A stretch of 20,000 bases of DNA from an uncultured virus (IMG/VR IMGVR_UViG_3300045609_000049) (IMGVR_UViG_3300045609_000049), one strand, 5' to 3'; shown: positions 1,072 to 20,000, counted from the first letter of the stretch. Numbers and translations: made by a program. Notes: generated by a model not told the origin, from the sequence alone.

Positions 1072-1100
1072 TTTACATCATTAAGTTTTCTTTTTATAAT
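1072..1100 (+). promoter_or_regulatory. Sigma70/SigA-type promoter upstream of the RM-like operon
   Basis: TTTACA (1072-1077), 17-nt spacer, TATAAT (1095-1100); RBS GAAAGGA and ATG 1123 follow. Confidence 0.7.
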
Positions 1101-1122: not shown

Positions 1123-2172
1123 ATGTCACTATTAGATAAAATAACTAAACAGAAAGAGTATTATTCAGCTCATCCTGAAGAAGCTAATAAAAGAAAAGAA
1201 GAAGCTGAACGACGTAAAGCTGAAGAACAAGCTAAACGCGAAGCAGATCGCCTAGCGGAAGAAAAACGTCTAAAAGAAGCTAATGCAAAAGAAGTTAAAA
1301 AGTCATCTACTGCAAAGTCTAAACCTGTTAAAATTTCTAAATCTGTTAAACTAGTTAAGGTTGAAATAGAAGTAGAGCCATTACTTACTGAAAAGCAAGG
1401 TATTTATAAGTATATACCAGACCTTTTAGTAGATAAGACTACTGGTGAAAATATTATCTTTGCAGAAGATGAATATGAAGGTTATGGTTTGACTGACCTT
1501 TATACTGAAGATATAATGAAAGAACTTATTGCCTCAAAACAACTAAATTATAGAGTACGAAAGTCTCTTGAACATCAGAAATCTAGAACAAAGAAGAATG
1601 CTGAGGTTTTCACTCCTAGTTGGATTTGTAAACAGATGATTGACATGTGTGAGCCACCTGAAGATTGGCAAGAGTTTGTTCAGTCTACTTGGCTCGAGAT
1701 TACCTGCGGCGAAGGAGTATTTTTAGTATCTCCTTATGATGCTACTACTGGTGAAGAAATTAAATTAAAAGATAGAATTGGTGTTCTTGATAGAAAATTA
1801 CAGGCTATTAATAAACACATTAAACAAGAAGATTATAAAGATGAGAGATCATATAAAGGGGCTTGGATGCAGTGGGTAATTAAAGCTTATCAAACTACTT
1901 ATGGATATGAATTGCAAGGTGATAATTTATTCATTGCTAGAGTTAATTTATTACAAACTTTCTTTGATTATTTTGAAGATAAATGGGATTATCAGGTATC
2001 TAATCCTAAAACAATTGAAAAAATAATTGAAATAATTACATATAATATATGGCAGATGGATGGATTAAAAGATGTAATACCAATGACTGACATTCCTGCT
2101 AAGATAATGGATTGGCAAACAAATGAATTTATTGAATTTAGATCTTGTAAGGAGTCTATATGCCTATTATAA
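1123..2172 (+). CDS. RM-associated methyltransferase N-terminal half (SAM-binding motifs X/I/II, no NPPY) with a charged coiled-coil N-terminal extension
   Basis: KKNAEVFTPSWI (motif X), WLEITCGEGVFL (motif I-like), YGYELQGDNLFIAR (motif II), NIWQMDGL. No catalytic NPPY/DPPY. The first ~80 aa are E/K/R/A-rich. Confidence 0.75.
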   Translation: MSLLDKITKQKEYYSAHPEEANKRKEEAERRKAEEQAKREADRLAEEKRLKEANAKEVKKSSTAKSKPVKISKSVKLVKVEIEVEPLLTEKQGIYKYIPDLLVDKTTGENIIFAEDEYEGYGLTDLYTEDIMKELIASKQLNYRVRKSLEHQKSRTKKNAEVFTPSWICKQMIDMCEPPEDWQEFVQSTWLEITCGEGVFLVSPYDATTGEEIKLKDRIGVLDRKLQAINKHIKQEDYKDERSYKGAWMQWVIKAYQTTYGYELQGDNLFIARVNLLQTFFDYFEDKWDYQVSNPKTIEKIIEIITYNIWQMDGLKDVIPMTDIPAKIMDWQTNEFIEFRSCKESICLL

Positions 2173-2200
2173 ACATAGTTAATAGAAAGGAATCTAGAAT

Positions 2201-3205
2201 ATGAAATTTTCATATGCAATCGGTAATCCGCCATACCAAGAAAGTCAAAATGGTAATAATACTCAAATTTGGCCAAAATTTATTGAAGAAACTAATAAAA
2301 TAACAAGTACTCAATGTATGGTTCATCCTGGTAGATGGGTTATTCCAAAAGATAATATGAAAAAAGTAAGACAAAATTTAATAGATTTAGGATTAGCATC
2401 TTTTAAATTTTATCCATGTTCTGAAGATGTTTTTAGTGGAGTATCTATAGATGGCGGAATAACTATTACGCGTATAAAACAAGGAAATCATAATATAAGT
2501 TATTATGTAAATAACGATTATAAAGGGGAATATAAAATTACAGATATTATTTTTCCAGGTAGTTATATGGAAGAAGCATATAATAAAGTATTTAATAATA
2601 TTAAAACTAATATGATGAAATATATTATTGGTGAATCTGGTAAATATGGAACCGGTGGTGGATATAATAAATCATTACATAACAATATTTTAAAAGATTC
2701 ATTAAATAATATGAAAAATCCTATTAAAATTTGGGCTTCAAAGGGATTTGGAAAAGGAGAATCTAGATTTAATTGGTATTATATTGAAAAAGAAGAGCTT
2801 ATAGATCCACCTGATATTTTTAATACTCGAAAGGTCATGATAGACTCGAAAGGTCATGCTATTGCTCATGGTAAAGGTAACGTAATCAATAATTTACCTC
2901 AAATTTGCGATAAAAATGTATCTGGTAATGCTGTATTTTTTATTATACCTAAAAATGACAGCGAGAGAGAGTTACAGCTTATTAAATCTTTATTTATGAC
3001 TAAAACTGCTCGTTATCTTATGTGTATAACTATGAATAGCTTGCACGTTCGCGGATTTGAAAACATACCTGATTATCTAGAGCTCGCCAAGTTATTACCA
3101 GAAGATGAGTTATTTACTGATAAGTGGTTTTATAAGACATTTGATTTTAGTAAAGAACTCATTGAAGATATAGAGACTAGAGTCTCACCGAAAGTAGAAA
3201 AGTAG
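2201..3205 (+). CDS. N6-adenine MTase catalytic half + target recognition domain (Eco57I-methylase-like), copy A
   Basis: Begins MKFSYAIGNPPYQ (motif IV), then CMVHPGRW and DVFSGVSIDGGI (motif VIII-like). No SAM-binding motif I. Confidence 0.8.
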   Translation: MKFSYAIGNPPYQESQNGNNTQIWPKFIEETNKITSTQCMVHPGRWVIPKDNMKKVRQNLIDLGLASFKFYPCSEDVFSGVSIDGGITITRIKQGNHNISYYVNNDYKGEYKITDIIFPGSYMEEAYNKVFNNIKTNMMKYIIGESGKYGTGGGYNKSLHNNILKDSLNNMKNPIKIWASKGFGKGESRFNWYYIEKEELIDPPDIFNTRKVMIDSKGHAIAHGKGNVINNLPQICDKNVSGNAVFFIIPKNDSERELQLIKSLFMTKTARYLMCITMNSLHVRGFENIPDYLELAKLLPEDELFTDKWFYKTFDFSKELIEDIETRVSPKVEK

Positions 3206-3227
3206 AAAAGTAAAAAGGAGAAAAGAT

Positions 3228-4253
3228 ATGCGTTTTGATTTTTGCATAGGTAATCCGCCGTATCAAGAGCAAAAAGGTGGAACTAAAAATGTTGATATAT
3301 GGCCAGAATTTGTAAAAGAATCGACTAAGATTGCAGATACATCCTGTATGATTCATCCTGGTAGATGGGTTATTCCTAAAAAATACATGAAAAAGGTACA
3401 ACTATCATTATTATCATTAGGTATGACTAACTTTAATTATTTTCCAAATTCTAATGATGTTTTTGGTAATGTTTCCGTTGACGGCGGTATATCTATTACC
3501 TTATTTAACTCTGACTCTAATGGAGATACTCATTATAGTATTAGCGGAGAAGATAAAGGTATTTTTAACCCAGATGAAAAAATATTCTCTAATAAGTTTG
3601 AAGAAGAAGCTTATATTAAAGTATTTACCAGTATTAAAACAAATATGGAAGCATATAGATATGGAAGAATGGCTTTTGATGGTGGTCAATATGGCTATGA
3701 TAAAAAGATAAATAGAGATAAAGTATTTGACAAACCTGATGGTATGAGACATCCAATTAAAGTCTGGTGTTCTACTGAATTTGGAAAAGGAGAATCAGAA
3801 TACAAATGGAGATATATTGATAAAACAGATTTATTAGATTTTTCTGAAGAAAAATTATTTAGTTCTAAAAAAGTAATGATTGACAGTAAAGGTCATGCTA
3901 TTGCACATGGTAAAGGTAACATAATAAATAACTTACCCGTTATTTGTGATAGAGAAACAACTGCTGGCCCTGGAGTATACTGGTTCTTTCCAAAACATGA
4001 GATAGAGAGAGAGTTACAGCTTATTAAGTCATTGTTTATAACCAAGACAGCACGTTATCTTATGTGCATCACACAAAAGTCATTGTACGTAGCTGGCTTT
4101 GAAAACATACCAGATTATCTTGAGCTGGCTAAACTTTTACCTGAATATGAGTTATTTACAGACAAATGGTTCTATAAGACCTTTGATTTTAGCGACGGTC
4201 TTATAAATGAGATTGAAACTAGAGTTAGTCAAAAAGTAGATAAGGAGGTGTAA
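3228..4253 (+). CDS. N6-adenine MTase catalytic half + TRD, copy B (paralog of 2201..3205)
   Basis: MRFDFCIGNPPYQ, CMIHPGRWVIPK, DVFGNVSVDGGI. Shares KVMIDSKGHAIAHGKGN and the C-terminal ~70 aa with copy A. RBS AAGGAG. Confidence 0.8.
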   Translation: MRFDFCIGNPPYQEQKGGTKNVDIWPEFVKESTKIADTSCMIHPGRWVIPKKYMKKVQLSLLSLGMTNFNYFPNSNDVFGNVSVDGGISITLFNSDSNGDTHYSISGEDKGIFNPDEKIFSNKFEEEAYIKVFTSIKTNMEAYRYGRMAFDGGQYGYDKKINRDKVFDKPDGMRHPIKVWCSTEFGKGESEYKWRYIDKTDLLDFSEEKLFSSKKVMIDSKGHAIAHGKGNIINNLPVICDRETTAGPGVYWFFPKHEIERELQLIKSLFITKTARYLMCITQKSLYVAGFENIPDYLELAKLLPEYELFTDKWFYKTFDFSDGLINEIETRVSQKVDKEV

Positions 4254-4256
4254 AGA

Positions 4257-7200
4257 ATGAATATAAAACCTAATAGTGTAATAAGACCTACAATATATTG
4301 TTACACCACTCCTAACGATAAAGAACATGAGGGATGGTGTAAGATAGGTTACACTGATAGAGATACTGCAGAGCATTGTGTCTACACGCAGACTAGACGT
4401 TCTGATACTCAAGCAAAATTAGAATGGGAAAGTCAAGCAGTATTTGAGAATGGTTCTTATCAGACATTTATGGACCATGATTTTCATAAGTATCTGATTG
4501 CTTGTGGAATAGAAAGAAAAGAATCTGTATATGAAGGAAAGAAAGCGCCTGAGTATTTTAAGATTACACCTGAAAAAGCTAGAGAGCTATTATTCCAGTT
4601 CAAATCTCTAGTAGAACCTGCGAAAGCAATTAGTAACGATTATGTCCTTAGAGAAGAACAGGATAGGGCTGTAAATCTTACTATGGACGTAATGTCAAAA
4701 GAAGGTAGACATGAGGTTCTTTTGAATGCTAAGCCAAGATTTGGTAAGACTTTGACTGTATATAATTATTGTCAGCGAGAAAACTTTAAAAGAATCTTGA
4801 TTGTTACTAATAGACCTGTAATTGCTACTTCTTGGTATAATGACTATGTCAAGTTCTTAAATACCGACAAATACAGATTTGTAAGTAACTGCGCTGAAGT
4901 CAAGAACAGGCAGTATTGTATTTCTAGAGAAGACTGGGATAAGACTGACAAAGAAGATTATAATCTTATAGAGTTCATTTCTTTGCAGGATTTAAAGGGT
5001 TCAAAGTATTTTGGAGGTCAGTTTAATAAGTTAAAAGAAGTCGCTGATATTGGTTGGGATATACTTGTTATTGATGAATCTCATGAAGGTGTAGAAACGT
5101 TTAAGTCTGAAATTGCCTTTAAGCATATAAATAGAGAAAGAACTATCTATCTTTCGGGTACACCATTCAAACAGGTTGCTGGAGATAAGTTTGAAAAAGG
5201 TTCTATCTTCAACTGGACCTATGCTGATGAACAAGAGCGTAAAGCGGCTTGGGATTATGATATTGATGATGTCAATCCTTATGAAGAGCTTCCTCAGATG
5301 AATCTATTTACGTATAGACTTACTGATATGTTCAAGAAGCCTACTGATATGGATGTGGCAGACGTTGATAAGTATTTTGATTTGAATGAGTTCTTTGAAT
5401 GTAATGGTAGAGCTTTTGTAAATAATGAAGACATTGACATTTTCTTAGATAAACTTGCAAATGACCCTCGTTATCCTTTTGCTAATAAAGAGTTCGATGG
5501 TCTTATCAATCATTCACTTTGGTTATTAGATAGAGTCAACTCTGCAAAGGCTCTAGCAAGAAAACTAAAAGAACATCCCAAGTTCAGTCAATACAAGGTA
5601 ATAATTGCTGCTGGAGATGGTAAGATTGATGATGCTGAGAAAGTAGATAAGTCTTTTAATGAGGTTGTAGATGCAATTGCTAAATATGAGAAAACTATCA
5701 CTTTATCAGTTGGTCAGTTAACTACTGGTGTTACAATTCCAGAATGGTCCGCAGTGTTTATGTTATGTAATGTAAAGAGTCCTTCTTTATATATACAGGC
5801 GACATTTAGAGCTCAGAATCCATGTAAGACAAGATTAAGTGATGGTTCTTATATACAGAAAGATAATGCTTATGTATTTGATTTTGACCCTGCTAGAACT
5901 CTTAACGTAATGGAACAGTATGCAAATAACTTATACACTGACACGGCAGATGGTAAAGGTACAGAAGCTAAGAGATTAGAAAATATTGAACGCTTGATTA
6001 AGTATTTTCCTATCTATGGTGAAAATGATAATGGTGAATTAGTTGCTTATAATGCTAAAGACGTTGTTACTATTCCATCTAAAATCAAAGCTATTGAAAT
6101 TGTTAAACATGGTTTTATGTCTAACTTTTTATTCCAAAATATTGGTAGACTATTCAATGATAGTCATGCATTAGCGATTTTAGGTAATGTTAAGTCTCAA
6201 GCGCAATATAGACTTACTACTCAGCCTAAATATAATGAAGATGGTAGTAATGAAATAGAGGATGAAGACAAGATTGATGAACAAGCTGAAACTTTACTGG
6301 AAGAAGTAAAAGACGATAGCCTTCAGAGTGACCAGAATGAATTTCAGGAAACTACAAATAAACAGATTATAGATTTTATAACCACAGTAAAAGCTGATGC
6401 CAGAGAAGAATCTGAGAAACGGGAGAAAGCTCACAATGCCTATATAGACGAAAGAGTTGACAATGCTAAGAAAGTAGTTACTGCAGCCTTAGATAAGTCA
6501 GGCTCGACGATATACAATAAGGCAAAGATAGAAAAAGATGTAACTGACGGCCTTAAAGCAAAACTTACAGAATCACGAATCAATTATGATATTGACTGTG
6601 TAAAACGTAAAGAAGAATATAATAAAGTTATGGGTCAGGCTACTTCTAAAGAAGAAATGAAAGAACTAACTGTAAAACAGGCTCAAGCTGATGCAGACGC
6701 TGAACTTGAACACATGTTTGAAATGAAGTTAATTGAGAACAACTTCAACAAATCAATTATTTCCGATACTATCAAGGAATCAAAAGAAACTCTACAAGCT
6801 AAAGAAAACAAGAAAGCTGAAAATGAGTTTGCATATCCTAAACTTAGGGCATTCTCAAGAGCTATTCCTTCTTTCTTAATGGCGTATGGTGATGAGACAA
6901 CTACCTGTAAAACATTAGCTAGAGCTATCAATAGCGAAATGTTTAAGGAAATGACTGGTATTGATTTGGCTGACTATGTTTACTTTATAGACCAGGAATA
7001 TTTCAATGAAGCTATTTTCAACTCATCAATTCAAGAATTCTTAAATCTAAAAGATAAACTAAGTAACTACTTTGAGGACACTGAGGAAGATATTTTTGAC
7101 TATATTCCACCTCAGAAAACTAACCAAATCTTTACACCTAAGAAGACTGTTAAAATGATGGTTGACTTCTTAGAACAGAATGACGCTGGTTGTTTTGATG

Positions 7201-7508
7201 ACCCTAATCATACTTTCATTGACCCTTATATGAAATCAGGTCTTTATATTGCTGAAATAGTTACTAGACTTTTCAATAATGAAAATATAAAGAAAGCTTA
7301 TCCAGATGATAAAGAAAGACTAAAACATATCTTTGAAAAACAAGTATATGGTTTAGCTCCGACTGAAATTCTTTATAAGATAACAACTAACTTCATATTT
7401 GGTTTTGATAAAGATGGTAAGTATGATAGAAGTCACTTTGTTCAATTAGATGCTGACCAATATGTCGGCGGTAAGCTAGAAGAAAAACTTACTGAGTTAT
7501 TTGGTTAA
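4257..7508 (+). CDS. GIY-YIG(T5orf172-like) nuclease - SF2 helicase/ATPase (Res-like) - coiled linker - MTase SAM-binding half fusion, 1083 aa
   Basis: N-terminal TIYCY...KIGYT...DHDFHKYL...EYF. Walker A NAKPRFGKT, Walker B VIDESHEG, LSGTP, QLTTGVTIPEW, YIQATFRAQNP. C-terminal QIFTPKK..., FIDPYMKSGLY, QVYGLAPTE. RBS AAGGAGG. Confidence 0.85.
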   Translation: MNIKPNSVIRPTIYCYTTPNDKEHEGWCKIGYTDRDTAEHCVYTQTRRSDTQAKLEWESQAVFENGSYQTFMDHDFHKYLIACGIERKESVYEGKKAPEYFKITPEKARELLFQFKSLVEPAKAISNDYVLREEQDRAVNLTMDVMSKEGRHEVLLNAKPRFGKTLTVYNYCQRENFKRILIVTNRPVIATSWYNDYVKFLNTDKYRFVSNCAEVKNRQYCISREDWDKTDKEDYNLIEFISLQDLKGSKYFGGQFNKLKEVADIGWDILVIDESHEGVETFKSEIAFKHINRERTIYLSGTPFKQVAGDKFEKGSIFNWTYADEQERKAAWDYDIDDVNPYEELPQMNLFTYRLTDMFKKPTDMDVADVDKYFDLNEFFECNGRAFVNNEDIDIFLDKLANDPRYPFANKEFDGLINHSLWLLDRVNSAKALARKLKEHPKFSQYKVIIAAGDGKIDDAEKVDKSFNEVVDAIAKYEKTITLSVGQLTTGVTIPEWSAVFMLCNVKSPSLYIQATFRAQNPCKTRLSDGSYIQKDNAYVFDFDPARTLNVMEQYANNLYTDTADGKGTEAKRLENIERLIKYFPIYGENDNGELVAYNAKDVVTIPSKIKAIEIVKHGFMSNFLFQNIGRLFNDSHALAILGNVKSQAQYRLTTQPKYNEDGSNEIEDEDKIDEQAETLLEEVKDDSLQSDQNEFQETTNKQIIDFITTVKADAREESEKREKAHNAYIDERVDNAKKVVTAALDKSGSTIYNKAKIEKDVTDGLKAKLTESRINYDIDCVKRKEEYNKVMGQATSKEEMKELTVKQAQADADAELEHMFEMKLIENNFNKSIISDTIKESKETLQAKENKKAENEFAYPKLRAFSRAIPSFLMAYGDETTTCKTLARAINSEMFKEMTGIDLADYVYFIDQEYFNEAIFNSSIQEFLNLKDKLSNYFEDTEEDIFDYIPPQKTNQIFTPKKTVKMMVDFLEQNDAGCFDDPNHTFIDPYMKSGLYIAEIVTRLFNNENIKKAYPDDKERLKHIFEKQVYGLAPTEILYKITTNFIFGFDKDGKYDRSHFVQLDADQYVGGKLEEKLTELFG

Positions 7509-10364: not shown

Positions 10365-10610
10365 TTTTAGGAGGCGATAATCGTGTTTGATTATAATAAA
10401 GTAGATTGGCACAAGAATGGTGGTAAAGCTAAGCTTGACTTCTTTTCTTGTGACTTTAACGTAGAAGATAATTGCAATATTGTAACTTTCCATATTGTAG
10501 CATTTAATTGCAATGGTACAGATCTAAATTGCGCCGCAGACGATATTTTTAAAGCAAACGAAGTAGAAATCCACTAAGTCTTTAGCTTAGTGGATGAATA
10601 CGAGGTAATT

Positions 10611-11009
10611 ATGTCAAATTATAAAAGTAAAAATCATAGTAAATTTACTCTAAAATATCATATTATATTTGTTTGTAAATATCGTAAGAAATTATTAATT
10701 AAATATGGAGAAGAAATAAAACAAATTATAAAAGATATTTCATATAAATATGATTTTGATATTTTAGAAATTGAAGTAGATAAAGACCATATTCATATTT
10801 TAGTTGATAGTGAACCTAAATTATCTCCGTTAATGATAGTGAGAGTTCTTAAGCAACAATCAACTATAATTCTGTATGGCAGGCATCATACAGAATTAAA
10901 AAGACACTTCTGGAAAGAAAATACCTTTTGGACGGACGGATATTTTTGTTCAACAATAGGCGAAGTTAGTAGTAAAACTTTAGAAAAATATATTCAAAAT
11001 CAAGGATAA
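10611..11009 (+). CDS. tnpA: Y1 HUH transposase TnpA
   Basis: LKYHIIFVCKYRK, HUH motif DHIHIL, FWTDGYFCSTIG, catalytic Tyr in KYIQNQG. RBS GAGGT 10602-10606. Confidence 0.95.
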   Translation: MSNYKSKNHSKFTLKYHIIFVCKYRKKLLIKYGEEIKQIIKDISYKYDFDILEIEVDKDHIHILVDSEPKLSPLMIVRVLKQQSTIILYGRHHTELKRHFWKENTFWTDGYFCSTIGEVSSKTLEKYIQNQG

Positions 11010-11013
11010 ATAC

Positions 11014-11044
11014 TTGACAAAAATTAATTAAAATGTGTTATAAT
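11014..11044 (+). promoter_or_regulatory. Putative tnpB promoter
   Basis: TTGACA 11014-11019 and extended -10 TGtTATAAT 11036-11044. The 19-nt spacer is long, so the extended -10 is the stronger evidence. Confidence 0.55.
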
Positions 11045-11071
11045 AAATATAGAAAGAGAGGTGAATTAGAA

Positions 11072-12163
11072 ATGGCAAACAAGGCTTATAAATTCAGATT
11101 ATATCCTAATAATGAGCAAGAAATTCTTTTCAATAAAACTTTTGGATGTGTTAGATTTATTTTTAATAAAATGCTTGGTGATAAAATTGAGTATTATAAA
11201 GAAACAAAAGAGAAGTTAAATAATACACCTGCACAGTACAAAAAAGAATTTGAATGGCTTAAAGAAGTTGATAGTTTGGCTCTTGCAAATGCTCAACTGA
11301 ATTTACAAACAGCTTATAATAATTTCTTCAGAAACACAAAAGCTGGTTTCCCTAAATTTAAGTCAAAGAAAAGAAATAAGTTTTCGTACACAACAAATAA
11401 TCAGAATGGGACTGTTGCTATCGTTGAAGGAAAGTTAAAACTTCCTAAGGTCGGACTGGTAAAAATGAAACAGCACAGGATTATTCCATCTGACCAAAAG
11501 ATAAAATCGGCAACCATTTCAAAAACACCCTCTGGAAAATATTATGTTTCTGTTCTCGTTGAATATGAACAATACATACCAAATATTCAGCTTGATAAAG
11601 ATAAAGTATTAGGATTAGATTACGCAAGTCATAGTTTCTATGTCGATAGTCAAGGCAGAGAAGCTGATTACCCACGTTTCTATCGTAATGCTCAAAACAA
11701 ACTTGCAAAAGAACAACGTAAACTTTCACTTATGAAATACGGCAGTAACAACTATTATAAGCAAAAAGTGGTTGTTGCAAAAATTCACGAGCATATAGCA
11801 AATCAACGCAAAGACTTCATTCATAAATTAAGCACCCAGCTTGCTAATGAATATGATTATATTTGCGTTGAGGATATAAATATGCAGGGCATGGCACAGT
11901 CACTCAAACTTGGTAAATCAACAAATGATAATGGGTTTGGAATGTTTAGAACAATTATTGGTTACAAACTTTTTGACAGAGGAAAACAGTTGATTAAGAT
12001 TGACAAATGGTTTCCATCAAGTAAAATGTGTAGGCATTGTGGAGCAATAAATAAAGATTTGACACTTGCTGACAGAGTTTGGACTTGTGAATGTGGTGCA
12101 GTTATCAATCGTGATGAAAATGCAGCTATAAATATAATGAATGTCGGACTAAGCACGGTCTGA
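11072..12163 (+). CDS. tnpB: RNA-guided endonuclease TnpB
   Basis: KAYKFRLYPN N-terminus; RuvC D/E/D in GLDY, CVEDIN and NRDENAAIN; Zn finger CRHC...CECG. RBS GAGAGGTG, ATG 11072. Confidence 0.95.
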   Translation: MANKAYKFRLYPNNEQEILFNKTFGCVRFIFNKMLGDKIEYYKETKEKLNNTPAQYKKEFEWLKEVDSLALANAQLNLQTAYNNFFRNTKAGFPKFKSKKRNKFSYTTNNQNGTVAIVEGKLKLPKVGLVKMKQHRIIPSDQKIKSATISKTPSGKYYVSVLVEYEQYIPNIQLDKDKVLGLDYASHSFYVDSQGREADYPRFYRNAQNKLAKEQRKLSLMKYGSNNYYKQKVVVAKIHEHIANQRKDFIHKLSTQLANEYDYICVEDINMQGMAQSLKLGKSTNDNGFGMFRTIIGYKLFDRGKQLIKIDKWFPSSKMCRHCGAINKDLTLADRVWTCECGAVINRDENAAINIMNVGLSTV

Positions 12164-13128: not shown

Positions 13129-13216
13129 TATATAGATACAGAAATTATTCAATTTGATGATATATTTTAAAAGACTATTTAATTATAATAATACTTGTTT
13201 TAGAAAGGAAATTATT

Positions 13217-13738
13217 ATGGCAGATACAGTAGAAAAAGTGAACGGTACTTGGACAGACGGTAAACCATATAGTATTAAAAAGATATGGGGAAAGAATCCC
13301 AGATGGGAAGGCCATGAATTTTCGGCAGAAGAGGCAGCTAAATTATTCGCAGGTGAAACCATTGAATTTGATGCTATTTCTAAAGCCGGAAAGCAGTATA
13401 AGGCAAAAGGATTGCTTGCAATGCAGTCATTTACAGATGATGAAGGCAATACACATGAATATTTAGGATTTACACTTAAATTTGATGACCAGAAAGAATC
13501 CACAGACGATGTAGAGCGATTTACAGGTATGTGGGATGGTAAAGACGTAAAAGTAAAGAGAGTTTGGGGCGAGCACAGATTTACTGATGAAGAAGTAGCT
13601 CATTTGCTCGCTGGAGATACTATTAAGTTCCAAGCTAAATCACAACGCACTGGTAATTACTATACAGCAGAAGGTAAGTTAGCTGAACAGGAATACAGTG
13701 GAAACAAATTTATAGGTTTCAAACCTAACTTTGGTTAA
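13217..13738 (+). CDS. Stand-alone protein with two topoisomerase-III C-terminal-repeat-like domains
   Basis: Internal duplication: IKKIWG..HEFSAEEAAKLFAGETIEFDAISKAGKQYKAKGLL versus VKRVWGEHRFTDEEVAHLLAGDTIKFQAKSQRTGNYYTAEGKL. RBS GAAAGGA, ATG 13217. Confidence 0.65.
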   Translation: MADTVEKVNGTWTDGKPYSIKKIWGKNPRWEGHEFSAEEAAKLFAGETIEFDAISKAGKQYKAKGLLAMQSFTDDEGNTHEYLGFTLKFDDQKESTDDVERFTGMWDGKDVKVKRVWGEHRFTDEEVAHLLAGDTIKFQAKSQRTGNYYTAEGKLAEQEYSGNKFIGFKPNFG

Positions 13739-14100: not shown

Positions 14101-15385
14101 ATGAAAATAGCCGCATGCGTATTAGACATTAATAGCAATCCGCTTATGCCAATGTCTAGTTTTAAGCGTGTTCGTAAATTATTGAAAAATAACAAAGCTA
14201 AAGTGGTTCGTAGAGAACCTTTTACTATCAGGCTACTTTATAAGACAAAGACTAACGTAGTTCAATCAATTACATTAGGGGGTTGACACAGGTTCATCAA
14301 AAGTAGGTTTAGCAGCTATTACGAATAACGCAGTAGTTTACGCAGCTGAAGTAGAAATTAGAAATGATATAAGTAAGAAAATGGATGCTAGGCGCGATCA
14401 TAGACGCTCAAGAAGAATCAGAAAAACAAGATACAGGACAGCAAGATGGTTAAATCGTAAAAATTCAATTAAGAAAGATAGATTTAGTCCTACTATGATT
14501 AGTAAGATTAATTCTCACATTAGAGAAATTGAGTTTGTAAAATCTATTTTACCAATAAGTAAATTGGTTTTAGAAACTGGAACTTTTGATCCGCACCTGT
14601 TAAAGATGGAGGGTAAACCGTTTAATCGACATTGGGGCTACCAAAAAGGACCTAATTACGGATTTGGAAATGCGAAGGCAGCCTGTCTAAATAGGGATAA
14701 CTATACATGTCAATGCTGTAAAACTAAAAAAGGCACTCTACATGCACATCATATAGTTTACAGGTGAAACGGTGGTGCAGATACTTTAGATAATTTAATC
14801 ACGCTTTGTGAGGCTTGCCACAAGAAGTTACATGAAGGCAAGTTACAGACGTTTGAGTCAAACATCATAGGTAAAAAGAGGGGTACACTAAAACATGCTA
14901 CACAAATGAATAGTATCAGAAAACAGCTTTTACATAGATACCATGACGCTATAGAAACATTTGGCTATATAACTAAGGAGAACCGACAACTACTCTGTTT
15001 ACCTAAATCACACATAATTGATGCTTGTGTAATTGCAAGTCAAGGCAAAATGTTTGATTGGGATTTATGGTATTTTAAGAAAAAACATGTTGCAAAAGGT
15101 GATTATCAATTAACAAAAGGCATTCGGTGCGAACAAAAGATACCAACAGGTAAAATATATGGATTTAGAAAATTTGATAAGGTTAAATATTTAGGCAAAG
15201 AATATTTCATTAAAGGTAGAATGAGTAGTGGATTTGCAATTCTAATGGATATAGACAGTGTAAAAATCGATTTTAGCGATATGCCTAGAGGGCAGAAAAC
15301 CCCTAAAATGATTAATTTCAAAAGAATACGGGCAAGGAGCACTACATTATGTACAAGACAAAGAACCACTCTAAATACAGCCTAA
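14101..15385 (+). pseudogene. iscB: IscB (PLMP-RuvC-BH-HNH) with a frameshift and a premature stop
   Basis: PLMP motif; RuvC-I LGVDTGS broken by an extra G in G5 (14278-14282); Arg-rich bridge helix; LVLETGTFD; HNH CQCC...HHIVYR*NGG...DNLITLCEACH with TGA 14765-14767; RuvC-III SHIIDAC. Confidence 0.9.
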
Positions 15386-15744
15386 TAGCGCATTTTGTTT
15401 TTGTTGTAAAATATAGACATCCATTGTTGGTAGACCTAGGTGATTATACAGTATTACTAATTAAAGACGCATGTAAAAAATATAATTATAGTTTAATAAT
15501 ATGTGAAACACATATAGATCATATTCATGTACTCTTAGAGTATAATCCTAATGATAGTATAAACATAGTAGTTAAAAATTTGAAACAATATACAACATAT
15601 TACCTACGAAAGAATTATGATAGTATAATTTCAAAATATATCTATGGTAGTAGACGATTTTGGTCAAAAGGGTATTTTGTATGTAGCATAGGAAGAGGAG
15701 CTAGTTATGAAACAATTAAACGATACATTGAAGATCAAGGATAA
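15349..15744 (+). CDS. tnpA: Y1 HUH transposase TnpA of the IscB element
   Basis: LIAHFVFVVKYR, DHIHVL, FWSKGYFVCSIG, RYIEDQG. Overlaps the iscB 3' end by 37 nt. Confidence 0.9.
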   Translation: MYKTKNHSKYSLIAHFVFVVKYRHPLLVDLGDYTVLLIKDACKKYNYSLIICETHIDHIHVLLEYNPNDSINIVVKNLKQYTTYYLRKNYDSIISKYIYGSRRFWSKGYFVCSIGRGASYETIKRYIEDQG

Positions 15745-16106: not shown

Positions 16107-17661
16107 TAAACAGCTGTAAATTTATGTAAATAACATATAATTATTGTTTATATTTTAGTAGAAAAATTGACTAAGTATCATTGTTGTATACTTTTATAAG
16201 TAAACTATACTATTAATTAAATAGAAAAGGAGGAGAACTGAATGAAAGATAATCTAGTAACCTACAAAATTAAATACAATTGTAATGAAAGTCTTTTACC
16301 AGTAATTAAGCAGTACAATTCAGTTCTCCGTTTTACCTACAATAGGCTTTTAGATGAAAAACTTTCAACAAAAGAACTCACAGTTTTGCATAAGACTCTT
16401 AACAACACTGATTTAATTCAATCACATCTAAGAAACTCAGCTATTTATGATGCTAAAACTTTAATTGCTAAATCAACTACACCTATCATCTTCGGCAGTA
16501 AAAAACTATTTATGCAAAGATGCAAACAGCAAATAACAAATGAGGAATTTCAAATAAAGAAGCTATTTTCGTTGACAAGTATAGGCGAAATGTGTAAAGG
16601 CTCAAATCGTCTTTTCAAAATCATTGACAACAAAACAATTAGTTTTAATTTAAACCGCAATTTACATTACAGGCTAAATCTTGTTGACGTTGGAACAAAA
16701 AGATCTAAAGAACTTGATCAGTTACTAAAACTTCAATCTAATAAACAAATAGCTATTACATATAAACTTGACCTCAACTATGTCTATTTAACTTTTGACT
16801 ATAATATGTTGAAAAATTATATCTATAGAGTGAAGAAGAATAGAGTGATGGCAATTGATATGAATCCTAACTCAATTGGATGGACAATAACTGACTGGTC
16901 AAACGAATCATACCACATTGTCAAAGCAGGCACGATCAGTATAAAACCTCTAAACGACTACAGAGATTCAAAATCAGTAGCCTCTTCAAGCGACTTTCAT
17001 AAATACATAACAAACAAGAGAAATCATGAAGTAATTCACATTGCAAAAGACCTTTTTAACTTGTGCAAGCATTTCAAATGTGAAACTTTTGCTATCGAAA
17101 AACTTAATATGAAGTCTTCAGATAAAGAAAAAGGCCGAATGTTTAATAAACTATGTAACAACGTTTGGAATAGAAATTTACTTGTGCAGCAGTTGACTAA
17201 GCACATACAATCAAGCTCAACTACTTTTATAGAAGTTTTACCTCAATACACAAGCTTCGTCGGTAATATATTATATAGACAAGAACATCTACCAGACGAA
17301 TGTTTGTCAAGCATTGAAATAGGCCGCAGAGGCTTTGAATTTACTAATCAATATATTTTTAAGCGAAGATTGCCACAAAAGAGCATAGTGTTTCCTGAGA
17401 TTGAGTCAGTCAAAAGTCGAATTGTTTTATCATTGGAAGAACTAAACATCGATGTTCCTGACTTTAATAACTGGATGACACTATATTCTGCAGTCAAAAA
17501 ATCGAAACAGAAATATCGATTTTCTTCTTCAGAAACGCAAGCATATAATTCTGAAGTTCTTTTTAGCAAATTTTATAAACATAAATACATATTAGTTTAT
17601 AACTATTTATGACATTTTATAAAATTTGTATTTTATAATTCAGTAAGTAATATTTGTTTTG
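16107..17661 (+). mobile_element. Non-autonomous IS607-like tnpB-only element, ~1555 bp
   Basis: TTTTG is present at both junctions (16102-16106, 17657-17661). Ends are AT-rich with recurring TAAGTA. There is no transposase and no GC-rich end hairpin. The exact boundary is ambiguous by up to 5 nt. Confidence 0.6.
16242..17612 (+). CDS. tnpB: TnpB-like RuvC nuclease (IS607-type, no zinc finger), 456 aa
   Basis: LRFTYNRL helix, RuvC-I VMAIDMNPNSIG, RuvC-II FAIEKLN, VLPQYTSFVG, PDECLSSIEIGRRG. RBS AAGGAGGAG. Confidence 0.8.
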   Translation: MKDNLVTYKIKYNCNESLLPVIKQYNSVLRFTYNRLLDEKLSTKELTVLHKTLNNTDLIQSHLRNSAIYDAKTLIAKSTTPIIFGSKKLFMQRCKQQITNEEFQIKKLFSLTSIGEMCKGSNRLFKIIDNKTISFNLNRNLHYRLNLVDVGTKRSKELDQLLKLQSNKQIAITYKLDLNYVYLTFDYNMLKNYIYRVKKNRVMAIDMNPNSIGWTITDWSNESYHIVKAGTISIKPLNDYRDSKSVASSSDFHKYITNKRNHEVIHIAKDLFNLCKHFKCETFAIEKLNMKSSDKEKGRMFNKLCNNVWNRNLLVQQLTKHIQSSSTTFIEVLPQYTSFVGNILYRQEHLPDECLSSIEIGRRGFEFTNQYIFKRRLPQKSIVFPEIESVKSRIVLSLEELNIDVPDFNNWMTLYSAVKKSKQKYRFSSSETQAYNSEVLFSKFYKHKYILVYNYL

Positions 17662-17922: not shown

Positions 17923-19320
17923 TTGGTTAAGAATTATTTACTCGACACCAATGTTTTGATGTCAAATCCTAATAGTCTGTTTAGTTTTGCAGATAACAAT
18001 ATCTACCTTTGCGGTACAGTTATCCAAGAATTAGACAAACATAAGAAAGATCCTGGAGAAAGAGGTTATAATGCTCGAGAGTCACTTAGACTTATTGCAA
18101 ACTTAATTACGGATGCTATCGAGAATGAAACTGATAAGGAACAACGTCTTAAGATCGTACGCGATATTGGTATTGATCTTGGAAATGGTGGAAGATTGTT
18201 CTTTGAACCTGATGGTGTAGATATAGCAAATCTTCCTAAAGGATACGATATTACAGTTCCAGATAACAGAATTATTTCCTCTTGTGTTCATATGAATAAG
18301 AACTATCTTAAGGATAGTCCAGTTACTCTTCTCACTAATGATGGTGGATGTTTCATTAACTCACTTGTATGTGGTGTTAATGCAGATAATGTAAAGAGTG
18401 AGGAAATTGAGTACATTGGTTATTCAGGACATTTGGATCTCAAAATTGAAGATTGGAACATCATAAGTAAAATACATGAAGCTTTACAGATTGAGGCCTC
18501 AGAGATTCCTGAAATTGGAAAATTAGACTATCCATTATATGAAAATCAGTTTGTAACTATTACTTGTGGTAATATGTGTGTACTTACAGTATATCAGAAG
18601 GGTATTATCAAAAAAATTGAAGATATTGTAGTACATGACAATATTCAGCCGCTTAATAAAATGCAGACTTATGCAATGTGGGCATTAACAAACCCAGATA
18701 TTCCATTGGTTATCCTTGAAGGTCCTGCTGGAACATCTAAGACATTTGCTTCGCTTGCATGTGGATTACATCAGTTAGGTGTTGGAAATAAACGAGCTGC
18801 GCATGAAATTTATGATAGAGTGCTTATTTCTAGACCTAATGCAAAGACATCTGATGGTGACTTTGGTTATTTGCCTGGTACACTTGAAGAGAAAATGGGT
18901 CCTTTAGTTGCTTCATATATGGATAATCTAGAAGTTATTTTAGGTGATAAAGAAACACCTATCAAAGAAACAAGGGCGATCATTGAAGATATGATGCTCG
19001 ATAGATTTATTGAATTATGTCCTCTTTATTCTATTAGAGGTCGTTCTATCAATAATGCTTATCTTATTTGTGATGAGGCACAAAATGCTTCTAAGAAACT
19101 TATTAAGGACGTAGTTACAAGACCGTGTCAGAACACTAAGGTAATTATTGCTGGTGATCCTTCACAGGTTGATAACATGTCACTTGATAAGAGAAATAAT
19201 GGTTTAGTATATGCTAAAGATTGTATGAAGGGTAGTCCACTTTGTGCAATTATTAGATTTGAGCCAGATCATTGTGTAAGAAGCCCTCTCGCAGAAGAAG
19301 CTATTAAGAGAATGAAGTAA
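17923..19320 (+). CDS. phoH: PIN-PhoH (PhoH2/YlaK-like) ATPase/RNase
   Basis: PIN LLDTNVL...PDNRI...LLTND; Walker A GPAGTSKT; GYLPGTLEEKM, RGRSI, DEAQN, GDPSQVD. TTG start with RBS AAGGAG. Confidence 0.92.
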   Translation: MVKNYLLDTNVLMSNPNSLFSFADNNIYLCGTVIQELDKHKKDPGERGYNARESLRLIANLITDAIENETDKEQRLKIVRDIGIDLGNGGRLFFEPDGVDIANLPKGYDITVPDNRIISSCVHMNKNYLKDSPVTLLTNDGGCFINSLVCGVNADNVKSEEIEYIGYSGHLDLKIEDWNIISKIHEALQIEASEIPEIGKLDYPLYENQFVTITCGNMCVLTVYQKGIIKKIEDIVVHDNIQPLNKMQTYAMWALTNPDIPLVILEGPAGTSKTFASLACGLHQLGVGNKRAAHEIYDRVLISRPNAKTSDGDFGYLPGTLEEKMGPLVASYMDNLEVILGDKETPIKETRAIIEDMMLDRFIELCPLYSIRGRSINNAYLICDEAQNASKKLIKDVVTRPCQNTKVIIAGDPSQVDNMSLDKRNNGLVYAKDCMKGSPLCAIIRFEPDHCVRSPLAEEAIKRMK

Positions 19321-19573: not shown

Positions 19574-20000
19574 ATGATAATAGGCGTTGATTTGGGTAAT
19601 AAAACTCGTAATTCAGTCTGTGTCATGCAGGGTGATAAACTACTTGAATGGAGTAGATTAAATTATGCAGATTCTGAATCAGCCTGGCATCATAGGCAAA
19701 AAATAGTTTTGCAGATTCGAAAGTATATTAAGAAGTATAAATTAACTAAAAAGGATTACCTACTATTTGAGGAAATTGCTTTCTACAGAGGTATATCAAG
19801 AATGTACAATATTGTTAGTATGGCTTTTTTACAGGCTACACTTATCAATGAGTTCTCTGATGTTATTTCTATAAGCACTGTTCATGTACAATCATGGAAA
19901 AGTAAAGTCTTAGGAAATAGATCTGCAAAGAAAGAAGATGCAGTCGCATTTATAGAAGATCATTATCCGCAAGTAGATTTGAATATTGTAATTCATCATC
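19574..20000 (+). CDS. RuvC-like Holliday junction resolvase (runs off the window)
   Basis: MIIGVDLGNKTRNSVC (RNase H strand with catalytic D), YLLFEE, V.VQSWKSKVLG...AKKED; frame open to 20000. Confidence 0.75.
   Translation, partial: MIIGVDLGNKTRNSVCVMQGDKLLEWSRLNYADSESAWHHRQKIVLQIRKYIKKYKLTKKDYLLFEEIAFYRGISRMYNIVSMAFLQATLINEFSDVISISTVHVQSWKSKVLGNRSAKKEDAVAFIEDHYPQVDLNIVIHH

Follow-up and report, generated by a model that had tools for sequence, protein, structure and literature searches.

How can a restriction-modification (RM) operon mark DNA as self when none of its genes encodes a complete methylase? The question is raised by 20,000 nucleotides of DNA from an uncultured virus (IMG/VR IMGVR_UViG_3300045609_000049; 'the window' below means this whole stretch), in which four intact open reading frames (ORFs), all on the + strand and each preceded by a Shine-Dalgarno sequence, make up an RM-like operon at 1123-7508. 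The first, A, carries motifs X-I-II-III (EVFTP, LEITCGEG, YGYE; motif names are those general for gamma-class methylases), and the last, NHB, joins a nuclease and a superfamily 2 (SF2) helicase to a second methylase N-half, B (QIFTP, FIDPYMKSG, VYG), ending before NPPY. NPPY is found in neither N-half; it lies at residue 9 of the two middle genes, C1 and C2 (57% identical), ahead of a target recognition domain (TRD). The initial annotation of this DNA was thus right that no single gene holds a whole amino-methyltransferase (motifs I-III and NPPY are never on one window ORF), that NPPY plus TRD occurs twice, each time at the N-terminus of a gene, and that the break falls between motifs III and IV. 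The answer that we consider probable is that A-C methylates, whereas helicase-B-C reads without methylating and then restricts.

Is the split genuine, and is it general? Contigs from two other studies (X2, X4) run across the C1/C2 and C2/NHB junctions free of indels and with stop codons unchanged, C2 being represented by an identical 994-nt contig in both. Assembly error is thereby ruled out as the source of the split, and a frameshift or read-through fusion of the window genes is rejected on the same grounds. The A/C1 junction lies outside the X2/X4 coverage; A and C are separate in the relatives L001 and L149 and in 56 of 138 rows of the survey that follows. NHB residues 840-1083 matched 7013 of 7997 candidates, and none of the best 120 of those matches exceeds 1176 aa, so none of these carries C. 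The family has at least 586 genome matches, spread over gut Bacillota, Actinomycetota, Treponema, Fibrobacter, one methanogen and dairy plasmids. Using our own profiles of A, B, C, the nuclease and the helicase, constructed from loci of the family, we classified 137 loci and the window (138 rows, one a duplicate) together with 80 metagenome loci, making 217 distinct loci; these sets take the best 80 of longer lists and over-represent close relatives. The same parts recur throughout. The fully split layout (A, C, NHB) accounts for 56 loci of the 138-row set and 23 of the metagenome set, and an A-C fusion with NHB for 34 and 33, respectively; A, a B-C fusion and a nuclease-helicase are found at 13 loci, and A with a one-chain nuclease-helicase-B-C enzyme (NHBC) at one metagenome locus and seven plasmid loci, the remainder being mostly frameshifted or interrupted by a contig end. 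C therefore occurs fused to A or to B, and the joint is at the identical point every time. B is present at 202 of the 217 loci, with A alongside at 172 of these; at 26 of the 30 loci with B and without A, the upstream sequence is about 1 kb or less before the contig ends. A one-chain enzyme on a Vagococcus plasmid, apparently without A, proved to be no counter-example, as its A spans the origin of the record.

In the model of a natural 652-aa A-C fusion (locus L093; predicted local distance difference test score, pLDDT, 92.4; predicted template modelling score, pTM, 0.89), A contributes strands 1-3 and C strands 4-7, the break lying between strands 3 and 4. Across both halves the model resembles CamA, M.BseCI, PglX, BpuSI, LlaBIII, MmeI and DrdV (Z of 18.8 for CamA, with a root-mean-square deviation of 7.1 over 412 aligned residues; 17.4 for MmeI; 16.8 for LlaGI, 5ffj; 16.2 for LlaBIII, 4xqk). 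PDB searches by sequence with C2 and with the A and C alignments gave nothing useful. Complex modelling, run for the pair B+C2, placed window B (850-1083) and C2 in one sheet with a score of 0.84 against 0.01 for the best control, a mark reached by 116 of 157 solved pairs and by 2 of 215 mismatched pairs. The runs agree in at least 96% of contacts, with partner pLDDT at least 86, and the tightest predicted contacts are between the motif-I strand of B (986-989) and C2 residues 3-7, the strand before NPPY. This fit, together with the natural A-C and B-C fusions, supports the earlier suggestion that C can pair with either half.

The two N-halves are not equivalent. The first Gly of motif I and the acid of motif II are the positions that bind S-adenosylmethionine (SAM). 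Among 170 distinct A sequences, that Gly is kept in 165 (5 not parsed) and the acid (E or D) in 169. Among 187 B sequences, the Gly position is occupied by Lys in 180 (1 Thr, 6 not parsed), and the motif-II position by Ala, Gly or Ser in 182 and by an acid in none (5 not parsed); the same degeneracy is seen in the one-chain NHBC enzymes. B retains motif X (FTP in 118/119), the motif-I Asp (119/119) and a motif-III-like Asp (104/119). Because the canonical SAM-contact residues have been lost family-wide, B is most likely a pseudo-half, a SAM-blind docking site that completes the fold. The initial annotation had located both copies of motifs X, I and II correctly, but its count of two SAM halves is not supported in that form, motifs I and II of the helicase copy being degenerate.

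What, then, of those systems in which C is fused to a neighbour? We scored as an internal start any ATG or GTG lying 7-14 codons before NPPY with a Shine-Dalgarno sequence of -4 kcal/mol or better. Such a start is present in 52 of 54 fused ORFs (37/39 A-C, 14/14 B-C and 1/1 helicase-B-C) and in 37/37 fused genes of the second set (the 80 metagenome loci), against 2.5-5.7% of control 8-codon windows from the same gene classes (21/831, 97/2675, 90/2339, 651/13891 and 136/2374). In all seven one-chain plasmid genes (TTG allowed), GTG, TTG or ATG stands exactly 8 codons before NPPY, and the Shine-Dalgarno sequence before it is GGAG or AAGGA. Among B-C fusions, all 13 that have a Gly three codons upstream encode it as GGA (13/13), which is a minority Gly codon in most of these genes, and the residue at the start position in B-C and one-chain fusions alternates among Met, Val and Leu, solely as ATG, GTG and TTG. 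This codon pattern is consistent with selection on an internal start site, and it seems that free C is probably made even from fused genes, and likely always. In the systems comprising A and NHBC, A has no other source of NPPY, and free C would therefore resolve the puzzle. Genes for free C have their own start and Shine-Dalgarno sequence in 59 of 62 cases.

We propose, then, that free C (the NPPY half plus TRD) is an exchangeable subunit that would complete either N-half. With A it would form an active N6-adenine methylase marking self DNA; B would dock C as A does but without binding SAM, so that an unmethylated site would be read and not marked, after which helicase-B-C would move along the DNA by means of ATP and cut (translocation being inferred by analogy with Type ISP enzymes). 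The division of labour given in the initial annotation, with A for methylation and the helicase for restriction on ISP-like logic, is supported as the probable one.

The exchangeability of C is evident from comparisons among the 93 loci having all four parts. L084 and L085 are 100% identical in helicase and B and 98% in A, but only 19% in C; the corresponding figures for L092 and L094 are 98, 99, 97 and 32%, and for the window and L001 they are 92, 92, 69 and 22%. C swaps whole, the catalytic part changing along with the TRD, and A and B must therefore accept very different partners. Two full-length C genes are found at just 2 of the 217 loci (the window and L021), the close relatives L001 and L149 have a single C slot, and no second C was found in the A-C gaps of L010, L015, L019, L052, L059, L107, L108, L161, L162 and L183. 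Thus the core is two halves plus one C, and the second C is a local extra: the two-by-two arrangement previously described holds here but not for the family, and its two specificities are inferred solely from the 47% identity of the C1 and C2 TRD regions, the second C probably adding a second specificity to the window element.

C1 and C2 are each other's closest relatives in the set of loci (identity of 53% over the catalytic part, 47% over the TRD and 85% at the end), and their homologous 3' ends (Table 1) are a candidate recombination platform for gain or loss of C. In X2 and X4, a C1-like 3' contig has depths of 61 and 80, with a contig branch at 3108-3150 / 4167-4225; one flank is a piece leading into the C2 start (depth 27 in X2, 25 in X4), and the other has a C1-like letter in the C2 tail before the helicase (41 in X2, 63 in X4). 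The C2 contig has depth 12 in X2/X4, contig depth being no copy number. This hints that one-C and two-C forms coexist in the same populations. No convincing inverted repeats that might indicate programmed inversion were seen at the window C genes. Elsewhere, a four-base repeat in C at L150:172-1203, noticed by eye, reads TDRQTDRQTDR; five-base tracts of 11-12 units lie in or just before C at L053:1-55 and L055:1-60, and G9 runs occur at the interruption of C at L015:5235 and L043:5250. This suggests phase variation of C in a minority of systems (4 of 217 scanned loci, plus L150). A short GA run is present in the C genes of the window where L150 has its repeat (2963, 4005).

Table 1. Features of the window (positions counted from its first nucleotide)
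Feature	Position	Strand	Description
Promoter consensus	1072..1100	+	sigma-70/SigA-type, TTTACA-17-TATAAT; 11/12 match; consensus only
A	1123..2172	+	349 aa from ATG with Shine-Dalgarno; stand-alone SAM-binding N-half, gamma-class N6-adenine methylase
A motif I, LEITCGEG	1693..1716	+	first Gly kept
A motif II, YGYE	1900..1911	+	acid kept
C1	2201..3205	+	catalytic half (NPPY aa 9-12, strands 4-7) + TRD; Pfam Eco57I 2e-5, partial
C2	3228..4253	+	second catalytic half + TRD; Pfam Eco57I 1e-7, partial; 67 homologues
Homologous 3' ends	C1 2948-3205, C2 3990-4247	+	258 nt, 76% identical
NHB	4257..7508	+	T5orf172/GIY-YIG-like nuclease, SF2 helicase, helical stalk, methylase N-half B
NHB nuclease domain (aa 1-118)	4257..4610	+	Atlas T5orf172/MUG113 0.91
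SF2 helicase/ATPase core	4623..6173	+	AKPRFGKT, DESH, SGT, TFRAQ all intact
Half B	7062..7505	+	motifs X-I-II-III: QIFTP, DPYMKSG (K993), YGLA (A1034); predicted SAM-blind docking half
PIN-PhoH protein	17923-19320		64% identical in 467-kb relative
RuvC-like resolvase	19574-20000		74% identical in 467-kb relative

In what kind of replicon does the operon reside? We judged this from a 467-kb IMG/VR relative (G001, L232-L255; 27% GC, with direct terminal repeats), in which 16 window ORFs are matched, including the PhoH and RuvC-like proteins of Table 1 and NHB (92% identical). Among the 73 of its 158 ORFs of at least 250 aa that were scanned are a DNA polymerase, DnaB, topoisomerase II, pieces of RNA-polymerase beta, a sigma factor and NrdD; matches to terminase and tail proteins in those 73 were weak, and there were none to capsid or portal. 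Terminase_6N had no match in the relative (the control was positive in 5/14); the Gp23 and T4 portal profiles had none either, but their controls were also silent, so that result is uninformative. The large-phage setting claimed at first is plausible but unproven: the element is probably large, extrachromosomal and phage-like. The relative, which may be either a jumbo phage or a giant plasmid-like element, also has genes for NAD salvage and a 3841-aa protein. The runs containing the element are from bioreactor-sludge and wastewater metagenomes.

Phages provide further forms. On viral contigs, at least 550 stretches encode A, versus 58 for the helicase. Of the best 80 viral A loci, 77 lack C, B and helicase in their flanks, at least 4 kb being available on both sides at 68 of the 80; the 80 loci encode 64 distinct A proteins, every one with motifs I and II intact. 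Orphan A (L257-L335, in gut phages of about 58 kb, e.g. L277:7959-8759) sits in the replication module, among Sak4, resolvase and DnaB genes at the one locus scanned; its variants comprise 291 synonymous versus 165 non-synonymous changes, and some copies are only 173 aa from the first ATG. In five complete orphan-A phage genomes of 58-60 kb, neither the C profile (positive in the 467-kb record) nor Eco57I (control positive in 11/14) found a match, and NPP[YF] had 6 matches versus 8 for a control pattern, all in frames of 24-104 aa without a C-profile match. The cultured Fusobacterium phage FNU4 has an A-C fusion without a helicase (L336:5235-6875), and the jumbo Tenacibaculum phage PTm1 has C, a helix-turn-helix (HTH) gene and A, with no helicase match (L337:2510-4942), an A match being present also in PTm5. 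Just such a conserved half A, lacking a partner in the genome that encodes it, is predicted by the free-C model; it could make use of C from the host, although a very distant phage-coded partner is possible. Phage A would then capture any host C, either methylating the phage at the host's site or starving the restriction complex. That a writer/reader switch governed by the docking half and a phage half-A counter-defence should both hold, jointly defining a new RM subtype, is a proposition to which we would give somewhat less than an even chance.

Several observations weigh against our reading and must be set beside it. A itself departs from the canonical motif I, with GxA in 143 of 170, and the similarity between the A and B profiles is weak (57%, E 1e-4). 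Halves of split genes tend to pass the complex test through their likeness to solved one-chain methylases, and the B+C2 model shows a fit, not binding; moreover, the model of a natural B-C fusion is poor (pLDDT 61, from 14 alignment rows). The internal starts of A-C fusions could be relics of recent stop loss, although this is less likely for B-C and NHBC. The orphan A loci are 75-100% identical, one lineage and so close to one event, and related sequences generally make our counts non-independent. A is absent from four B loci (L116, L117, L170, L185) where more than 5 kb was available for it. Finally, in the window nuclease, which keeps Y14, K29-I-G31 and E99, Cys41 (codon 4377-4379) stands at the position of an Arg found in 183 of 186 family domains, and which we take to be the catalytic GIY-YIG Arg. 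The Cys is shared by 14 of 110 parsed homologues, clustered on a quick helicase tree (45 of 121 proteins) with two changes. All 14 have an Arg seven residues further on (window Arg48, 4398-4400), where 181 of 186 family domains have Thr. The window nuclease may thus be dead, or its catalytic Arg may have migrated, and the restriction role originally assigned to this operon, though supported for the family, is doubtful for the window copy.

Might the window copy, then, have ceased to cut, the operon serving instead to methylate the element against host enzymes of this family, to soak up host C or to block rival DNA by translocation alone? We regard this as unlikely, but as a rival to be taken seriously, and it is compatible with our preferred reading as to assembly, differing only on the role of the window copy. 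It draws on the change to Cys in the window and its clade of 14 and on the helicase-free phage forms (C+HTH+A in PTm1, A-C in FNU4, A alone in gut phages), but the displaced Arg of all 14 Cys proteins could replace the one lost, Y14, K29, G31, E99 and every helicase motif have been retained, and the eight closest relatives share 81-92% identity in the part of the helicase that was searched. It is distinctly less probable that both halves bind SAM, NHB+C being a full ISP-like enzyme, capable of both methylation and restriction, and A+C a helper for faster or second-strand marking. The residues that B keeps in motif X, motif I (Asp) and the motif-III-like position (Asp), the four loci seemingly with B and without A, and a positive role that the invariant Lys of B could play would all suit such an arrangement, but no parsed B, those of the one-chain enzymes included, has kept either of the canonical SAM contacts, and a change of Gly to Lys together with loss of the acid would be expected to abolish SAM binding in this fold; besides, all seven one-chain plasmid enzymes keep an A partner. 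The pieces might also be decaying or mis-assembled fragments of one-chain genes that do not assemble at all. One-chain NHBC and A-C genes do exist, and C or helicase genes are frameshifted at some loci (e.g. L016, L035, L115, L149). We nevertheless consider this extremely improbable, since the cut is at the same strand boundary in every layout, nearly all free C genes have their own start and Shine-Dalgarno sequence, the junctions recur in independent studies, and the variation in orphan A is predominantly synonymous.

Some details of the operon remain to be mentioned. For A, the ORF caller chose TTG at 1105, but we prefer the ATG at 1123, where a Shine-Dalgarno sequence is present. Its N-terminus (1123-1380) is a charged, probably helical extension of about 85 aa, present in the L001 relative too. 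A matches PADLOC MTase_II (PDLC03390, 7e-61) as well as our own A profile, and the Atlas clusters around it comprise 'restriction endonuclease subunit M' together with the N-terminal half of Eco57I fusions of 652 aa. In C1 and C2 the Pfam Eco57I match covers profile positions 73 onward only; NHB matches ResIII (2e-11), T5orf172 (0.005) and Helicase_C (0.01), and an NCBIfam scan of the four ORFs gave no real match. The SigA promoter claimed for the operon is an 11/12 consensus match and no more than that, one of the two best of 34; a match with an equal score lies inside gene A, and such sites in this AT-rich region are no commoner than chance (34, versus 39 expected from shuffles). The short contigs of an RNA run (X17) fall on A and the helicase, with no contig on the C genes; as expression cannot be judged from contigs, we give this no weight.

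Other loci have their own peculiarities. A 252-aa gene, presumably DUF4238-like with an HHIP motif, lies between A and C in the 467-kb relative (L001:6160-6918), and inserts of 0.6-3.3 kb occur within the operon at other loci. L164:2797-6981 is an ORF of 1394 aa that matches C, the helicase and, in a nuclease-like part, the nuclease; A is on one side of it and a second nuclease-helicase gene on the other, and two nested systems may share one A here. Systems related to A+NHBC are common on Enterococcus and Lactococcus plasmids, one of them adjoining optrA on an Enterococcus plasmid (L143:1-7356). In the window itself, two tandem YdcK/hexapeptide beta-solenoid repeat proteins (46-618 and 632-1006; phrog_5070, phrog_7964) precede the operon, and IS200/IS605-type insertion sequence elements lie at 10590-12163, 14101-15744 and 16242-17612. 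One comprises a TnpA-like gene and TnpB (Pfam OrfB_IS605, Cas12f1-like), and another has what we take to be a three-piece IscB-like gene and, after it, a second TnpA-like gene. Among these stretches is a 456-aa protein with no Pfam match, which has a counterpart of 45% identity in the 467-kb relative. The protein at 13154-13738, 54% identical to one in the relative, has two internal repeats weakly like the topoisomerase C-terminal repeat (Toprim_Crpt, E 0.007).

What would follow if the free-C model is correct? Marking and cutting would be separated under one specificity gene, so that a swap of that single gene would retarget both. There would be a natural modular adenine methylase, its halves accepting partners that are only about 20% identical, which could be of use in programmable methylation, and a hidden barrier to transformation in gut and dairy bacteria would be explained. 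The model predicts a half-enzyme anti-restriction trick in phages, and such a counter-defence, if it exists, would be independent of host specificity.

How does the system relate to those already known? Its genes are catalogued: they are usually annotated as 'Eco57I domain', 'DEAD/DEAH helicase' or 'restriction endonuclease subunit M', and PADLOC profiles match the separate halves as 'MTase_II', in each case with no explanation that we could find. In the literature searched, which lay largely outside subscription journals and supplements, there was no description of a split system with a shared half, in agreement with the initial view that such generically annotated genes had no mechanistic account; PMC9881135, PMC7824862, PMC13764132 and PMC12839542, considered as possible descriptions, deal in their available text with other systems. 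Nor do the defining features of Types ISP, I, IIG/IIL and III, yeeABC or MANTIS provide a match to a named subtype.

An internal start within a restriction gene has a parallel in McrB, of which long and short forms arise from one gene, but the short form, on the account available (PMC12707154), is a damping regulator of a methylation-dependent nuclease, whereas here the internal product would be the catalytic-specificity half. M.AquI and M.EcoHK31I likewise assemble an active DNA methylase from two polypeptides; as portrayed in the accessible part of PMC3404938, they are C5-cytosine enzymes cut at other sites, with one fixed partner, no helicase and no disabled half. The yeeABC cluster of Bacillus subtilis (DnmA-YeeB-YeeC) also brings together an N6-adenine methylase, an SF2 helicase and T5orf172, but there DnmA forms one unbroken MmeI-like chain, while the helicase and the T5orf172 protein each have a gene of their own (PMC9973331, in the text available), whereas in the window the methylase is split and nuclease and helicase are fused. 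MANTIS (Gao_RL) combines adenine hemimethylation with a separate helicase-nuclease effector; it requires an AAA+ loader, MtsA, together with MtsB as co-regulator, and its abstract mentions no split methylase (bioRxiv 10.64898/2026.09.23.753747). The four window ORFs have no match to the AAA family in Pfam, PADLOC or NCBIfam.

In Type IIG and IIL enzymes a single chain combines nuclease and methylase and there is no ATP motor, unlike the window system with its SF2 helicase; the best stretch of the PADLOC REase_MTase_IIG match (4e-15) is helicase residues 287-704. Type III Mod proteins, which work with Res, are beta-class, in the order catalytic motif, TRD, SAM motif, whereas the fusions found here run X-I-II-III-IV-TRD and have gamma-class-like structures. 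Type ISP enzymes such as LlaGI and LlaBIII are closest in their order of nuclease, SF2 helicase, gamma methylase and TRD. NHB has the SF2 helicase with intact motifs, but a gamma N6-adenine methylase followed by a TRD exists only as A+C or B+C together; Type ISP is a single polypeptide with an active methylase, whereas the window system has four ORFs and a helicase-linked half that is degenerate in sequence, and in the family C is separate or internally started and nearly every system has A as a second half. The nucleases differ too, being Mrr in Type ISP and T5orf172/GIY-YIG-like here (no Mrr match in Pfam at E<=0.1). LlaGI and LlaBIII are reported, in the portion of PMC3553950 available, to be >95% identical through the AdoMet-binding part and <50% identical in the catalysis-plus-TRD third; on that account, the boundary of their divergence is the gene boundary of the window system. 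Type I systems share the principle of one exchangeable specificity subunit serving methylating and restricting complexes (PMC6158711, as excerpted), but there the methylase is complete in HsdM, and the two TRDs of HsdS come without catalytic residues, whereas C combines a single TRD with the NPPY half of the active site, and matches Eco57I, not Methylase_S. The system described here is thus a new RM variant, ISP-like in its proposed function, with a Type I-style sharing of the specificity subunit.

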